From sequence record NC_054905.1: 64,000 nt of DNA. One strand, given 5' to 3'. The translations under genes were made by a program, and so were the position numbers. The notes below the pieces were generated by a model. It saw only the letters and a list, made by a program, of their open reading frames with translations, was not told the DNA's origin and did no database searches. Source of the DNA: Enterobacteria phage Kha5h. Positions 118 to 58,442 of this stretch are shown in pieces; the stretch's first letter is position 1; each line of letters opens with the position of its first letter.

Positions 118-303
118 CTATTCACCTTTAGAAATTTTATCCATAACGATAGCAATTAAACCAATTAAAAATGCTACTACAAGTGAAAACACATTTTCTG
201 CTGTAGTTAATAATCCACATATAAATCCAACAAACATTGAAAAACTAAAAGCAGAAGCAGAAATTGCAATAGCAACATTTCGAATTAATTCACAACGTTT
301 CAT
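118..303 (-). CDS. small membrane protein (61 aa, two predicted TM helices)
   Basis: Track ORF; GAGGAG Shine-Dalgarno before ATG; hydrophobic segments AIAISASAFSFSMFVGFICGLL and VVAFLIGLIAIV. Confidence 0.5.
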   Translation of the reverse strand: MKRCELIRNVAIAISASAFSFSMFVGFICGLLTTAENVFSLVVAFLIGLIAIVMDKISKGE

Positions 304-331
304 TTTATTCTCCTCGGTAGTTGATAGGGTA

Positions 332-27368: not shown

Positions 27369-28993
<1,625 letters not shown>

Positions 28994-54743: not shown

Positions 54744-55579
54744 TAGAATGCTCCTTGGAAAATATTATCACCACTAGTAGGTCTATTATACAAATACTCT
54801 ATGCCACCGGGTTTAATATAGTTCCATGTCTGAAACGGATGCGTCTGATATGGATGATATGGATTATAAGGATTAAACCCAGGAGTTCTCCAGGTAGTGT
54901 TCCAAGGAAAAGAATCGTTTTTGATCATCTTCTCAATTACATCTTTTATAGCTTTTTCACGATCAAAACTTTCTTTAATTTCCTTCGATGGAAAAAGCTT
55001 ATTCTCGACATCATTCCATGTATAAACTCGCTGTGCAGTTTTTGGAATACTGTCACGCTCTCCTCGAGCCATCCAATAAACAGGAACATTTAATATTTCA
55101 CTCGCGTGATCGCAGTGGTGAGCGAGATCGTCAATATAACAAATTACGTTATATTTTTCTTTTGCTTTTTTGAACAGCTCTTCTTTTGAAGAATCATGAC
55201 TACACATCAGTACTTCTGAGAAGGCACCAGGAAAAAGAGCATTCAAATTAAATTGACGATTCAGCAGAGCGTCAATAGAATCACCCAATGCTGTAACAGC
55301 TACAAAATTATAATCTTCTTTTAATTTGTTAATTACACACAGGGCATCTTTATATGGAGACAAGTAACGAATAAAATCTGAACGATTATATTTTTCAATT
55401 AACTTGACACCAAGTTCTTCATCACAGTTAAAGAGTTTACCTGGAGAAATAAATTTTTCGTCTTGAATCATTTTTAAAATATGTTCTAATGGAAGATTAT
55501 ATTTTTGGGCAAAATAAGGAAGGCCTGATTGCCAGCTTAAACATACTCCATCAATATCAGTTAAAATAGTAGGCTTCAT
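54743..55579 (-). CDS. HAD-superfamily phosphatase-like protein (position of T4 30.2)
   Basis: 278 aa; N-terminal DxDG motif ILTDIDGV and later YIDD. Confidence 0.65.
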   Translation of the reverse strand: MKPTILTDIDGVCLSWQSGLPYFAQKYNLPLEHILKMIQDEKFISPGKLFNCDEELGVKLIEKYNRSDFIRYLSPYKDALCVINKLKEDYNFVAVTALGDSIDALLNRQFNLNALFPGAFSEVLMCSHDSSKEELFKKAKEKYNVICYIDDLAHHCDHASEILNVPVYWMARGERDSIPKTAQRVYTWNDVENKLFPSKEIKESFDREKAIKDVIEKMIKNDSFPWNTTWRTPGFNPYNPYHPYQTHPFQTWNYIKPGGIEYLYNRPTSGDNIFQGAF

Positions 55580-56040
55580 AGAGAGTCTCTTAATAGGTTT
55601 AACACATCAATAAATTCAGCTTCGGTTAGTATTGTATCATCTTTTGTTAGACCACTAGCCATGCTGTGCTTCAAAACTTTTCCTTTCGAGGCTTGTAATG
55701 CATCACGAAAGCCCTTGTTTTGAATCGCTGCTTCAAAATATGCATTTGTGTATAATTCTTTCCACGCCGGGGAGTATCTTGAAAACGGAACTCCAAGCCA
55801 GAAGAGGGTCCCACGGTCCTGAGCTCTAGCATAAGACCTTCCAGCTTGTTGAGCGGCAAGCCCGGATAACCCAAATATACGACGTTGTTGTTCAACGTTT
55901 TTCACCTTGCATCCTTGGAGGAATCCTTCAAGACCTCCAAATTGAATACCATCCATGACGAAAGGCCATTGGGCGAAATTACTTAATGCACATGATGGCC
56001 ACCTAAAATTGCTTCTAATCTCTAACTCAGACATTTTCAA
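55576..56040 (-). CDS. NADAR (YbiA/DUF1768)-like protein, predicted ADP-ribose processing (position of T4 30.3)
   Basis: 154 aa; LSNFAQWPFVMDGIQFGGLEGFLQGCK resembles the NADAR core recalled from E. coli YbiA. Confidence 0.6.
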   Translation of the reverse strand: MKMSELEIRSNFRWPSCALSNFAQWPFVMDGIQFGGLEGFLQGCKVKNVEQQRRIFGLSGLAAQQAGRSYARAQDRGTLFWLGVPFSRYSPAWKELYTNAYFEAAIQNKGFRDALQASKGKVLKHSMASGLTKDDTILTEAEFIDVLNLLRDSL

Positions 56041-56233
56041 TGCTTATAATCTCAACATCAGCCCAATGACCATAGCAAGGAAGACGAAATTCAACTGGCC
56101 AGTTAGGATCCTTTTCTAATATAATAGACTTAACTTGTGGTTCTTCATGTTCATCAGTATATGGATTTTTATCTGTTACTTTATATGTGACCTTAATGTA
56201 CTGAATTCCAAAAATCTTATTAATTATATTCAT
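56027..56233 (-). CDS. hypothetical small protein
   Basis: 68 aa track ORF in the early cluster. Confidence 0.45.
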   Translation of the reverse strand: MNIINKIFGIQYIKVTYKVTDKNPYTDEHEEPQVKSIILEKDPNWPVEFRLPCYGHWADVEIISIENV

Positions 56234-56427
56234 ACTAATTCCTTTAATCCGTAAATAGGAGATAATTCATCACCCATGCGAAGGTCTTCATTTCCATCTA
56301 CCCAGGAAACAATATAAGCCTCTTTTATTTGAATACCACTCCATTTAAATGGAGGTAGAACCTTAGAAATTAATCCAGGTATACCAACTCCCTTTAATTC
56401 AACAGTTTGACCTAAAAAGAATTTCAT
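56230..56427 (-). CDS. hypothetical small protein
   Basis: 65 aa track ORF. Confidence 0.45.
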   Translation of the reverse strand: MKFFLGQTVELKGVGIPGLISKVLPPFKWSGIQIKEAYIVSWVDGNEDLRMGDELSPIYGLKELV

Positions 56428-56714
56428 TAGAACCTCATCTGAAAACCGTGCGATTTAACATTACCGCCACCAATATCAGAGATATTAATTTCGCGCGCAA
56501 TTGAAGGGTCAATGTCAATTTCACGATTGAGTTTAGTGATAGCTAAAGTATCGCGCCCATTTACAGTACGAAACTCTAAAGGACAAACCACATCAACGTA
56601 GTTTTTAATCGATTCACTGGTAGGCTGCAAATGAGCAGGAAGGTCTTTAGGCGCCTTTGAGAAAACAACTTCGCAGAAGTTTTTACGGGTATCAAAATAA
56701 GTAGTCATAAACAT
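56427..56714 (-). CDS. hypothetical protein
   Basis: Track ORF 56427-56750 trimmed to ATG MFMTTYFD... with GAGGAAAA Shine-Dalgarno; the extended N-terminus runs through an intergenic hairpin. Confidence 0.5.
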   Translation of the reverse strand: MFMTTYFDTRKNFCEVVFSKAPKDLPAHLQPTSESIKNYVDVVCPLEFRTVNGRDTLAITKLNREIDIDPSIAREINISDIGGGNVKSHGFQMRF

Positions 56715-56731
56715 AATATTTTCCTCAGTAA

Positions 56732-56745
56732 GGGGCCGAAGCCCC
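56732..56745 (-). terminator. intercistronic UUCG-tetraloop hairpin
   Basis: GGGGC-CGAA-GCCCC between the 121-aa ORF stop and the Shine-Dalgarno of the next ORF; no U-run. Confidence 0.35.
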
Positions 56746-56755
56746 CTCATTTATT

Positions 56756-57121
56756 TTAAATATCAAATTCATTAAGAACTACATCAAAGATTGCTTCAAG
56801 ATGCTCAGGTTTAGCTCTGTTACTCAGAATATGACGAATCCAAGTTTTAACCAGAAGCTTGCGATTAGCACCATTCCAGCAAGGATGAGCCCCTAAATCG
56901 CGTTGACGGAAATCATCATCCAGAGCAATTTTGAAGTTGGAACCTTCCATTGTGATTGAAACCGTGATACCGTTTTCAAATCGCATATAAACGTAATTAG
57001 GAGTCATATACTGCTCAATTTCGCATACTGATCCATTTTGATGTTTCCAAAGGCAAATAGTATCAATAGAACCTGCAATACCATTAGAAACATATTTACG
57101 TTCAAAGTTGATGTAGTTCAT
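56756..57121 (-). CDS. hypothetical protein
   Basis: 121 aa; GGAG Shine-Dalgarno; early-promoter-like element upstream. Confidence 0.5.
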   Translation of the reverse strand: MNYINFERKYVSNGIAGSIDTICLWKHQNGSVCEIEQYMTPNYVYMRFENGITVSITMEGSNFKIALDDDFRQRDLGAHPCWNGANRKLLVKTWIRHILSNRAKPEHLEAIFDVVLNEFDI

Positions 57122-57158
57122 TTTTATTCTCCAAGATGTTTAATTGCGGTACAGGTAT

Positions 57159-57187
57159 ATAATATCATATCCTGTACCAAAGTAAAC
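57159..57187 (-). promoter_or_regulatory. early-promoter-like element upstream of the 121-aa ORF, -10 enclosed by an inverted repeat
   Basis: Minus strand GTTTAC then 17 nt then TATTAT; 8-bp inverted repeat GGTACAGG/CCTGTACC (57148-57155, 57171-57178) flanks the -10. Confidence 0.45.
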
Positions 57188-57189
57188 AA

Positions 57190-57522
57190 TTATTTTACTA
57201 CTTTCCAGTGCTTCATGTCAAGTTTACCGACTTTTTTCATCTTCTCAATTAAGCGTTCTGCACGTTGGCGAGCTGTAACATAATGCCATTCACCTAATTC
57301 ATTTTGTTCAATTTTTCCAACGATTACTGTATTCAATTCATAAATCCAACCAGTAAAGAAATTATGAACTTGAATTGTAAAGGTGAAATCTGTTCCCATA
57401 CCTTCTGTTGTTTCTACTTCAATAATATCACCTTCAACTGCCATTAAGAACCACATAGTTTCATCATATTTACCATTGAAGCATTTAGTTTTAACTGCAG
57501 CGTTCAGATTAATCGTTTTCAT
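57190..57522 (-). CDS. hypothetical protein
   Basis: 110 aa; AAGGAG Shine-Dalgarno; early-promoter-like element upstream. Confidence 0.5.
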   Translation of the reverse strand: MKTINLNAAVKTKCFNGKYDETMWFLMAVEGDIIEVETTEGMGTDFTFTIQVHNFFTGWIYELNTVIVGKIEQNELGEWHYVTARQRAERLIEKMKKVGKLDMKHWKVVK

Positions 57523-57549
57523 TTTATTCTCCTTTGTTTGTGTAAGATA

Positions 57550-57579
57550 ATACTATCACAAAGGAGCTATACTGTAAAC
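57550..57579 (-). promoter_or_regulatory. early-promoter-like element upstream of the 110-aa ORF
   Basis: Minus strand GTTTACA then 17 nt then TAGTAT, directly after the 57610-57627 terminator. Confidence 0.4.
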
Positions 57580-57603
57580 AACTTTATGCAATCTTTGGAA
57601 AAT

Positions 57604-57627
57604 AAAAAAGGACTCCCGAAGGAGTCC
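57604..57627 (-). terminator. intrinsic terminator downstream of the basic-protein ORF
   Basis: GGACUCC-UUCG-GGAGUCC hairpin followed on the minus strand by UUUUUUAUU. Confidence 0.7.
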
Positions 57628-57632
57628 TCAAC

Positions 57633-57809
57633 TTATGCTTTCTGCTTACCAAAACGAGAAGCATCATCTCGAAGAACCGCACGTGCTCGGCGCATGATCT
57701 TCTCAACAGTTTGATTGATACGAGAGTTCGACCCACGCTTGTAGCCAGCGCGTTTAGAATCACCAACTTTCTTTTCAACTGCTTTCTTTGCTTTAACTTG
57801 TTTTGCCAT
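57633..57809 (-). CDS. small highly basic protein (position of T4 30.9)
   Basis: Track ORF trimmed to ATG MAKQVKAKKAVEKKVGDSKRAGYKRG...; strong terminator 5 nt downstream. Confidence 0.5.
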   Translation of the reverse strand: MAKQVKAKKAVEKKVGDSKRAGYKRGSNSRINQTVEKIMRRARAVLRDDASRFGKQKA

Positions 57810-58054
57810 TATAAATTCTCTTTTAAATGAAAATGCAGGACTTATTGGCATTGCCTGCGCAAGCCCTCAAGGGGAACATAGGTTTTTGGATATTTAACGA
57901 CCAGGATAACCATAAACCCGTCATCATTCACATTCAAGAGGTACACCGTAAAACTGCCGGGGTCTTAAAACTATAATGATTCGCAAATCATTAATCAGAC
58001 AGTTCGACGGCTCCTCGATTTTAGCTCGCACTAAGGCAGTGAATCTCCAATAAA

Positions 58055-58303
58055 TTACTTCAGTGTTACCACAAAGTGACGAACTGCTTTTCGTGCAGCA
58101 GAAGCCAGAGGCTTAGCATATTTAAGTTCATCTTTTTCCTGAAGCTCAGCAGCTAATGCAGTTTGAGCAGGATTCAGATGTTTGAAATAACGCAGGATTT
58201 CAAGAGCTTCGGCTTCAACATCAATAGATGCGCCATAGTTTTCGTGACCATTATTCCATGCGTTTCGTTGCAGTTCAAGAGCGTGTTGTAATTGTTTAAT
58301 CAT
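58055..58303 (-). CDS. rIII: RIII lysis-inhibition accessory protein
   Basis: 82 aa MIKQLQHALELQRNAWNNGHENYG... Confidence 0.85.
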   Translation of the reverse strand: MIKQLQHALELQRNAWNNGHENYGASIDVEAEALEILRYFKHLNPAQTALAAELQEKDELKYAKPLASAARKAVRHFVVTLK

Positions 58304-58442
58304 TTAAAAATTCTCGTTAGAGATTAAAACTCGGTAGTCACGTTCTTCTGAATTTCATCTTCTTTCGACAGATCTCTCAGTTGTAGACTACCACATAGAA
58401 TTGTTCGGTTAACTTATTATTCCGACACCCAATTCATATTAT

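Follow-up and report, generated by a model that had tools for sequence, protein, structure and literature searches.

Genes 30.9 to 30.4 in a T4-type phage: an early gene cluster preceded by a conserved, putatively structured leader RNA

The window analyzed here is a stretch of 64,000 nucleotides from Enterobacteria phage Kha5h (sequence record NC_054905.1), and all features described below lie on its minus strand. The region belongs to a T4-type phage, with 97.9–98.9% nucleotide identity to T4T and its relatives and with matching gene annotation; the closest isolate is vB_EcoM-S1P5QW (98.9%). A first-pass annotation had placed six tightly packed ORFs of 58–121 amino acid residues in this region, and the ORF list and the sequence were found to agree with it: beginning at the rIII side, the genes are separated by gaps of 110, 68 and 41 nt and then overlap by 1 nt, 4 nt and 8 nt, the last overlap being with gene 30.3. 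The description of these ORFs as uncharacterized and devoid of a recognized domain did not stand. Based on the identity of their proteins to those of T4T (98–100%; record HM137666), the six ORFs were identified as the T4 genes 30.9, 30.8, 30.7, 30.6, 30.5 and 30.4, and two of them have Pfam families named after them. The genes, their order, strand, overlaps and signals are all shared with phage T4 (HM137666), from which the window differs as another isolate with few substitutions.

Gene 30.9 (57633–57809) encodes a very basic protein of 58 residues (pI 11.4) with the invariant core SKRAGYKR..N.RI; its dN/dS is 0.22–0.46, and it was found in 997 phage records. Gene 30.8 (57190–57522; 110 residues) matches Pfam PF06019 (Phage_30_8) with 194.4 bits (cut-off 25) over profile positions 1–124 of 124, and gene 30.7 (56756–57121; 121 residues) matches PF06919 (Phage_T4_Gp30_7) with 176.4 bits (cut-off 27) over positions 1–118 of 118. 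Conservation among the six is highest in the 30.7 protein, in which H27, D69, R74, H79, W82, K92 and D113 are invariant. A strikingly invariant polar loop was also seen in it.

Gene 30.6 (56427–56714; 95 residues; 803 records) shows a dN/dS of 0.04–0.13 against phages of related genera and 0.31 against one distant phage. An exhaustive HMMER search of 1.84 billion proteins returned only five cluster representatives for 30.6, all of them T4-like. A form of 107 residues was rejected, because the extension is not conserved and the start of the 95-residue form is. Gene 30.5 (56230–56427; 65 residues), whose start overlaps the stop codon of 30.6 by 1 nt (TAATG), carries the invariant motif GIPG...Y.V.W.DG. 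Gene 30.4 (56027–56233; 68 residues; dN/dS 0.15–0.29; 719 records) overlaps the stop codon of 30.5 by 4 nt (ATGA), and its end overlaps the start of 30.3 by 8 nt. As for this neighbor, a NADAR label given to 30.3 found no counterpart at the sequence level: no NADAR family was matched in Pfam at E ≤ 10 and no sequence in the PDB, and the sole Pfam match was PF08010 (Phage_30_3).

All six genes are under purifying selection, with dN/dS values of 0.04–0.3 (up to 0.46 for 30.9) against diverged orthologues, well below 1, which argues that the ORFs are more than chance reading frames. They were found in 719–1040 of 50,697 phage records, all T-even-like, and their synteny is kept among relatives with gains and losses; 30.9, 30.6, 30.5 and 30.4 keep the T4T synteny between rIII and 30.3. 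Across genera, the six ORFs keep their starts and ribosome sites. The six proteins match PHROGs 1427, 1507, 1582, 2153, 1690 and 2042, all families of unknown function; the profile matches of 30.9, 30.6, 30.5 and 30.4 to PHROGs 1427, 2153, 1690 and 2042 are full-length, with E values of 7e-37, 5e-51, 1e-33 and 2e-35, respectively.

Putative early promoters precede two of the ORFs, as had been claimed. The site of 30.8 (57550–57579) consists of GTTTACA, 17 nt and TG-n-TAGTAT, and that of 30.7 (57159–57187) of GTTTACT, 16 nt and TG-n-TATTAT. T4-type early promoters were defined by a −35 element GTTTAC(A/T), a spacer of 16–18 nt, a −10 element TAnnAT and an upstream TG, all of which are present at both sites, and both fit the early-promoter consensus TTTACW-N17-TAYWAT given for T4/PST (PMC4122927). 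A raw scan of the region for sigma-70-like sites was not above chance (12 found, 13.3 expected). Relatives from other genera nevertheless retain the two sites, and for 30.7 the GTTTAC and the −10 element are kept in all genera examined. No promoter of its own was detected for 30.9, and this gene is probably co-transcribed with rIII.

An intrinsic terminator follows 30.9 (57599–57629; GAGGACUCC-UUCG-GGAGUCC and U6). Its 9-bp stem, UUCG loop and U6 tract have a folding energy of −16.4 kcal/mol (z = −4.0); the element is kept across genera, and compensatory changes were observed in relatives. The terminator is real, and the earlier claim of a strong terminator behind the basic ORF of 58 residues stands for the hairpin and the U-tract, but not for the distance, which is 3 nt past the stop codon instead of 5. 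A sub-threshold Rfam match to Atu_C8 proved to be just this hairpin.

Further hairpins were predicted at the following ribosome sites. Between the spacer of the 30.8 promoter (CUCCUUUGUG) and the 30.8 ribosome site (CAAAcAAAGGAG), a hairpin (57529–57566; −15.9 kcal/mol, z −3.3) is possible only in read-through RNA from upstream, in which the ribosome site is predicted to be paired. The inverted repeat GGUACAGG...CCUGUACC (57148–57178; −20.1 kcal/mol, z −5.05) encloses the −10 element of the 30.7 promoter; in other genera an inverted repeat is also found at this promoter, with different sequences, some of which pair with the GGAG site. Based on folding and covariation, each promoter would lie inside an inverted repeat that, in read-through RNA, covers the ribosome site or folds beside it, and translation should then occur mainly from promoter-proximal transcripts. 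A hairpin without a U-tract (GGGGGCUUCGGCCCC; 56732–56746) precedes UUACUGAGGAAAAUAUUAUG, the ribosome site and start of 30.6; it has the compensatory variants GGAGGC/GCCUCC and GGGGCGAAAGCCCC, and the hairpin module is reused before unrelated ORFs.

The PeSL (promoter-early stem-loop) cassettes of the hyperplastic regions of T4-type phages (Arbiol 2010, PMC2839356; Comeau 2014, PMC4122927) consist of a stem-loop or terminator followed by an early promoter, TTTACW-N17-TAYWAT. Judged by sequence layout, the 30.9 terminator and the 30.8 promoter form a cassette of this type. The setting is likewise a variable region whose flanking genes are gained, lost or swapped among relatives, and junctions were found at the terminator and promoter sites, where relatives lack 30.8 or 30.7 or carry extra inserted ORFs. 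The canonical order is seen only in the 30.9-terminator/30.8-promoter pair, whereas at 30.7 an inverted repeat encloses the promoter.

Transcription and RegB processing of the T4 genes 30.4–30.9 were reportedly the subject of a 2006 study. In the window, the ribosome sites of 30.8 (57522–57532) and 30.7 (57122–57132) both read GGAGAAUAAAA, a perfect match to the RegB/S1 consensus, and the 30.8 site is conserved across genera; four sites of this type are present in the window against 0.1 expected. The RegB/S1 target, as given by Durand 2006 (PMC1702504), is the 11-nt sequence GGAGRAYARAA in the ribosome-binding region, and T4 30.7 mRNA is a published RegB/S1 cleavage substrate (PMC9409239). The 30.8 and 30.7 sites thus resemble those of motA, motB and other early mRNAs of T4 under RegB control (Durand 2006) and match the consensus exactly, whereas the sites of 30.6 and 30.5 (GAGG), 30.4 (AGGA) and 30.9 (AAGAG) depart from it. 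Good Shine–Dalgarno sites had been claimed for all six ORFs; this is true of 30.8 and 30.7, which are strong (GGAG), and of 30.6, 30.5 and 30.4, which are good, but the site of 30.9 is weak.

The expression data come from T4 and, like RegB cleavage and the protein binding described below, were carried over to Kha5h at 98–100% protein identity. In the time-resolved omics of T4 (PMC9697503, Table S2), all six transcripts are early, and the proteins of 30.4–30.8 were detected and are early as well. The earlier suggestion of early genes is in line with these classes (RNA and protein for 30.4–30.8, RNA for 30.9), and translation is borne out by proteomics for five of the six products, the exception being 30.9, whose protein was undetected. 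According to the genome-wide CRISPRi-ART and HIDEN-SEQ screens, all six genes are non-essential in the laboratory. A HIDEN-SEQ signal for 30.8 in the comparison with an rnlA deletion (log2FC 3.2) was set aside as not significant (adjusted p = 1).

Taken together, the cluster is very probably the 30.9–30.4 part of an early region, variable (‘hyperplastic’) in T4-type phages, that lies between rIII and the DNA ligase gene, with the following layout, control and action. Transcripts of 30.8 and 30.7 would each start at their early promoter, made immediately upon infection by the sigma-70 RNA polymerase of the host. Gene 30.9 would be read through from rIII across a structured leader of 245 nt, after which the strong terminator would stop transcription. 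The genes 30.6, 30.5 and 30.4, which have no promoter, would be carried on the 30.7 mRNA downstream of 30.7, the translation of 30.5 and 30.4 being coupled to the preceding gene by the overlapping stop and start codons, and transcription would continue into 30.3, 30.2 and the ligase gene. Because the RegB/S1 target is reproduced exactly at the ribosome sites of 30.8 and 30.7, RegB would cut both and end translation of the two genes within minutes, as cutting has been shown for 30.7 of T4. The ORFs, promoters, terminator and RegB control are already known as textbook-level T4 annotation, and the layout has been described earlier for T4; confirming the six genes and their signals therefore adds little, these being ordinary T4 accessory genes.

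Previous work bears on the action of one of the six proteins. T4 30.5 was reported to bind the host polyphosphate kinase (Ppk) and to trigger the defense protein bNACHT11, whose SNaCT domain it was reported to bind too (bioRxiv 10.1101/2024.12.17.629029). The Kha5h protein is 100% identical to T4T 30.5, and the assayed T4 protein is NP_049819. The bNACHT11 activators of this preprint are small early proteins of T-even phages, each binding a host kinase (T2 gp6-CoaA, T2 gp57-GlpK and T4 30.5-Ppk), and are described there as unrelated proteins, so that they form a class by behavior and not a family; the 30.5 of the window is identical to that of T4, whereas the other five ORFs share the size class, early timing and dispensability, the link to a kinase and bNACHT11 being that of 30.5 only. 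As this report indicates, proteins of this kind can interfere with host metabolism and at the same time give the phage away to immunity, which makes the neighbors of 30.5 reasonable candidates for similar screens. On the basis of this one preprint, the other five may be small accessory proteins whose partners are proteins of the host. The idea of host takeover raised in the first-pass annotation thus fits 30.5, the only one of the six with a reported host partner. From its many invariant polar residues, 30.7 could be an enzyme rather than a binder.

An anti-defense function had also been suggested, and no evidence for it was obtained. It is unlikely that any of the five proteins left unassigned serves specifically to inhibit a bacterial immune system. 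Early timing, dispensability on laboratory K-12, patchy distribution and allele swapping in the hyperplastic region count for this possibility, since they are typical of counter-defense genes. However, the sole reported defense link in the cluster is the opposite one, bNACHT11 being activated and not inhibited by 30.5; the main text of both screen papers (CRISPRi-ART and HIDEN-SEQ) mentions none of the six genes; and the proteins have no similarity to any characterized protein. For the six proteins, searches of Pfam, NCBIfam and PADLOC brought up only the two Pfam families that carry the names of the genes, with no match to the defense proteins of PADLOC, and PDB sequence and profile searches with 30.8, 30.7, 30.9 and 30.5 gave no match. 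AlphaFold (AF2) models of 30.7 and 30.8, the alignments for which were built from database matches, were confident and gave no convincing structural relative; in BFVD, 30.7 matched only members of its own family.

The leader assigned above to the 30.9 transcript is the spacer of 245 nt that separates rIII from 30.9 (57810–58054), which directly precedes 30.9 and lies outside the coordinates of the first-pass annotation. Based on alignments, it was divided into the modules A (58023–58050), B (57934–58018), D (57880–57922), E1 (57864–57874) and E2 (57834–57860). It is conserved across relatives with compensatory base pairs and would be made up of hairpins that fold independently, one of them probably a pseudoknot. 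In other genera the leader includes a nearly invariant module of 141 nt with seven helices. Indels of 1 nt inside the conserved blocks argue against coding, and Rfam gave no family for the window region or for four related loci. The possibility that the C2 RNA module is a mobile element present in repeated copies was rejected, given its single copy per phage genome and its absence from bacterial genomes. The structured spacer may be new. Expression of 30.9, with which the cluster begins, could be controlled by it as a cis-regulatory leader or a processed non-coding RNA, perhaps with the help of a bound protein. A joint reading, that the region is no plain spacer but a modular, structured RNA not described before and that, separately, 30.7 and 30.8 are new folds targeting host factors as 30.5 targets Ppk, is proposed tentatively, as something slightly short of an even chance. 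If functional, the leader would bring an RNA element into a region believed to be completely annotated, and would also correct the 72-residue annotation of 30.9.

The protein bound by the leader might be 30.9 itself, that is, a small RNA-binding protein acting on the structured RNA upstream, either to autoregulate its own translation or to form a ribonucleoprotein. The extreme basicity of 30.9 and its invariant SKRAGYKR core would suit such a role, as would its constant position directly behind the conserved leader and ahead of the terminator; moreover, leader loops such as AUGCCAAUAAG are kept while the stems covary, which suggests a bound factor. Nevertheless, basic composition by itself is weak evidence, the protein was not detected in T4, and no similarity to known RNA-binding families was found in Pfam and PDB searches. 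The idea that the leader serves the 30.9 protein is further weakened by one relative, L034, which keeps the leader with the body of 30.9 replaced by an unrelated ORF, and an RNA-binding 30.9 is accordingly held to be quite improbable.

That some of the six are chance reading frames or decaying remnants, as might be supposed from their short length, lack of known domains, individual dispensability, the undetected T4 30.9 protein and a truncated 30.6 of 55 residues in the relative L007, is highly improbable and already largely refuted by the low dN/dS of all six, the starts and ribosome sites kept across genera, the hundreds of genomes that carry the ORFs, the five proteins detected during T4 infection and the confident models of 30.7 and 30.8. 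The annotation of 30.9 in the T4T record as a protein of 72 residues would be corrected: its longer part is not backed by conservation, and the start of the 58-residue form is conserved.

The region 55500-58400 was found to share 98.9% identity with Escherichia phage vB_EcoM-S1P5QW and 97.9% with the T4 record HM137666 (T4T), and 957 phage records were matched in all. In T4T, these ORFs carry the gene names 30.9, 30.8, 30.7, 30.6, 30.5 and 30.4 and are located between rIII and 30.3, with 30.2, 30.1 and the DNA ligase gene 30 further downstream. The six-ORF feature is already known; its remaining value lies in proteins without an assigned function and in a structured leader. The genes, all on the minus strand, are located at 57633-57809 (30.9, 58 aa, pI 11.4), 57190-57522 (30.8, 110 aa), 56756-57121 (30.7, 121 aa), 56427-56714 (30.6, 95 aa), 56230-56427 (30.5, 65 aa) and 56027-56233 (30.4, 68 aa), and the ORF list and the sequence bore out the coordinates and sizes of the first-pass annotation. 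The proteins share 98-100% identity with their T4T counterparts, 30.5 being identical. T4T also annotates 30.3', an internal out-of-frame ORF (55671-55895) within 30.3 (55576-56040). The NADAR-like label that the first-pass annotation gave to 30.3 could not be confirmed on sequence: in searches with 30.3, PF08010 was the sole match, and neither a NADAR profile nor the PDB gave a hit.

For the comparison, 37 related phage loci were fetched. Against diverged orthologues, dN/dS was 0.22-0.46 for 30.9, 0.08-0.31 for 30.8 and 0.15-0.29 for 30.4. Against related genera, it was 0.04-0.11 for 30.7, 0.04-0.13 for 30.6 (up to 0.22 and 0.31, respectively, against more distant phages) and 0.17-0.22 for 30.5 (0.47 against one distant phage). 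The ribosome sites and start codons are kept across genera. When 50,697 phage records were searched with tblastn, 30.9 was found in 997, 30.8 in 1040, 30.7 in 993, 30.6 in 803, 30.5 in 851 and 30.4 in 719. Every match was a T-even-like enterobacterial phage, apart from additional Aeromonas phages for 30.8 and 30.6.

The early assignment proposed for these ORFs agrees with time-resolved T4 transcriptome and proteome data, in which 30.4-30.8 are of the early class in RNA and protein, and 30.9 is early in RNA with its protein undetected (PMC9697503, Table S2); translation was thus seen for five of the six. By CRISPRi-ART, 30.4, 30.5, 30.7, 30.8 and 30.9 were scored 'Not Fit' and 30.6 'Semi-Fit' (PMC11879866), and transposon mapping classed 30.1-30.9 as non-essential (bioRxiv 10.1101/2025.11.20.689424).

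The spacer between rIII and 30.9 (57810-58054, minus strand, 245 nt) is more conserved at the DNA level than the neighbouring ORFs, and it is not coding, because 1-nt indels fall within its conserved blocks. Its hairpin modules are retained, lost or reordered among phages, and G-U pairs assign the structure to the gene strand. Judged by comparative sequence analysis, hairpins B, D, E1 and E2 make up a conserved and modular structured RNA in this spacer. Module B (57934-58018, minus strand) is a long hairpin of 26 pairs, five with compensatory change, and 98% of its cells are paired, versus 29-67% with the partners slid. Module D (57880-57922, minus strand) has a covarying stem, and its loop-to-tail complementarity, which persists though the sequence differs between genera, suggests a putative pseudoknot. 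The stem of module E2 (57834-57860, minus strand) varies (GCAGG/CCUGC, GGGAGC/GCUCCC, GAACUGG/CCAGUUC), and its loop AUGCCAAUAAG is retained where the hairpin stays short.

Many relatives carry in the same spacer an additional 141-nt module, C2, which is absent from the window (L012:2887-3285; also L011, L016-L022, L026, L028-L033 and L036). Column identity of C2 across genera is 94%, and its seven helices comprise 43 pairs (11 compensatory), with 99.4% of cells paired versus 25-42% with the partners slid. A conserved C2 27-mer has a single copy per genome in 15 T4-like viral contigs and is absent from all of about 186,000 bacterial genomes searched. Rfam gave zero matches for the spacer RNA of the window region and four related loci, and a limited literature search found no earlier description of it. 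In one related locus (L034:1486-3064), the leader is retained and a 214-aa ORF takes the place of the 30.9 body; this ORF and 30.9 have only the first ~13 residues (MKLSKAKAKTAVKE) in common, and more unrelated ORFs lie between it and 30.8. Since this locus keeps the leader with another ORF, the spacer RNA appears to be a leader for expression or regulation and not a dedicated partner of the 30.9 protein.

The structured spacer is also evidence against the 72-aa form of 30.9 annotated in T4T. Conservation favours the 58-aa start, because the upstream ATG at 57851 is ACG in close relatives and sits in the loop of a conserved RNA hairpin; the T4 annotation in the omics supplement likewise gives the 177-nt (58-aa) form. 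For 30.6, conservation favours the 95-aa start, and the 107-aa extension passes through a hairpin. In L007 (4413-4577), another related locus, 30.6 is truncated to 55 aa by a frameshift after residue ~38, which is consistent with dispensability of the gene.

Early-promoter-like elements had been proposed before two of the ORFs, and both are upheld: 57579-57550 for 30.8 (GTTTACA-17-TAGTAT) and 57187-57159 for 30.7 (GTTTACT-16-TATTAT), both on the minus strand with TG before the -10. A simple promoter scan gave no enrichment over shuffles; both sites are kept in every genus examined and match TTTACW-N17-TAYWAT, the early-promoter form given for T4/PST (PMC4122927). The strong terminator proposed after 30.9 was also found (57599-57629, minus strand; 9-bp stem, UUCG loop, U6; -16.4 kcal/mol, z -4.0), with a stem that varies among relatives and retains complementarity, although it begins 3 nt past the stop codon and not 5 nt. 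No promoter precedes 30.6, 30.5 or 30.4; overlaps are found between 30.6 and 30.5 (TAATG), 30.5 and 30.4 (ATGA), and the end of 30.4 and the start of 30.3 (8 nt).

30.8 and 30.7 have one and the same ribosome-site sequence, GGAGAAUAAAA, which is identical to the optimal target reported for the phage nuclease RegB with S1 (PMC1702504). This sequence precedes both genes in all genera and occurs four times in the window versus 0.1 expected. Other perfect RegB/S1 consensus sites (GGAGAATAAAA) are located at 303-313 (minus strand) and 27410-27420 (plus strand). Truncaite et al. 2006 reportedly dealt with how the genes ahead of gene 30 are transcribed and their RNAs processed; the abstract is said to describe two strong early promoters together with a terminator, a stem-loop and RegB sites that are conserved across 16 phages. 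A later source names T4 30.7 mRNA as a known RegB substrate, crediting that study (PMC9409239).

An inverted repeat surrounds each promoter. At 30.8, its paired arms are the promoter spacer CUCCUUUGUG and CAAAcAAAGGAG in the ribosome site (-15.9 kcal/mol, z -3.3); at 30.7, GGUACAGG/CCUGUACC encloses the -10 (-20.1 kcal/mol, z -5.05), and the repeat is retained in other genera with altered sequence, several of these variants pairing with GGAG. In read-through RNA, the ribosome site would by inference be hidden or flanked, and in promoter-proximal RNA it would not.

The terminator (57599-57629) and the 30.8 promoter have the layout of a promoter-early stem-loop (PeSL) cassette; such cassettes have been proposed as mediators of gene shuffling in the hyperplastic regions of T4-type phages (PMC4122927). 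The hairpin after 30.7, GGGGGCUUCGGCCCC, has compensatory variants and no U-tract, and is followed by UUGAGGAAA...AUG. Such a junction, with a G+C hairpin (UUCG, GAAA or UACG loop), UUGAGGAAA and AUG, was located at 56712-56746 and in L017, L018, L020, L026, L030 and L032; it recurs before unrelated ORFs in different genera and looks like a portable, promoter-less counterpart of PeSL cassettes. Gene content in this region is plastic: JS10 lacks 30.8 and 30.7; in Karamvirus, Jiaodavirus and other genera, 30.6, 30.4 or 30.3 is missing, and additional ORFs flank 30.7 on both sides, in the interval that follows 30.8 and after 30.7 itself. Among otherwise close phages, two types of 30.8 allele (~80% and ~39% identity to the window protein) separate L008 and L012-L015 from L007, L009-L011 and L016, all phages whose 30.7 is 88-93% identical. 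Two 30.8 alleles amid similar 30.7 genes indicate probable cassette exchange at the promoters flanking 30.8.

Pfam returned self-named families only, for 30.8 and 30.7; all six PHROGs families are labelled 'unknown function', NCBIfam and PADLOC gave zero matches for the six proteins, and PDB sequence and profile searches with 30.8, 30.7, 30.9 and 30.5 were empty. For 30.6, only five cluster representatives were found among 1.84 billion proteins. Confident AlphaFold2 models, based on alignments of 43 (30.7) and 91 (30.8) sequences, comprised seven strands and two C-terminal helices for 30.7 (pLDDT 92) and a mainly beta fold with one helix for 30.8 (pLDDT 95.7). Because seven residues of 30.7 (H27, D69, R74, H79, W82, K92 and D113) are invariant in the 43 sequences, the protein may carry a site for catalysis or tight binding. 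The core SKRAGYKR..N.RI of 30.9 is invariant, and GIPG and Y.V.W.DG are conserved in 30.5.

Host-takeover or anti-defence functions had been suggested for these ORFs, a reading that is partly supported. Binding of a host enzyme is supported for 30.5 by a 2024-2026 preprint, in which host polyphosphate kinase co-purifies with T4 30.5; anti-defence roles, though possible, gained no support, and the preprint reports direct activation of bNACHT11, an NLR-like defence protein, by 30.5, with T4 escaping when 30.5 and two other activator genes are deleted (bioRxiv 10.1101/2024.12.17.629029). The genes 30.9-30.4 most likely form an early cassette of accessory genes, driven in the first minutes by two early promoters; 30.9 would instead be transcribed by read-through from rIII, and RegB would turn off 30.8 and 30.7. 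The products are small and dispensable in the laboratory, with at least one (30.5) binding a host enzyme; by analogy, the other five may likewise act by binding host proteins.

In some GenBank records (OL964745, MK524178, MZ170040, NC_054933, OK272473), 30.9 is named '1,4-alpha-glucan branching enzyme, GH-13-type', and 30.7 or its neighbours 'baseplate hub subunit'; judging by how large the proteins are and by their sequences, the labels look like annotation errors.
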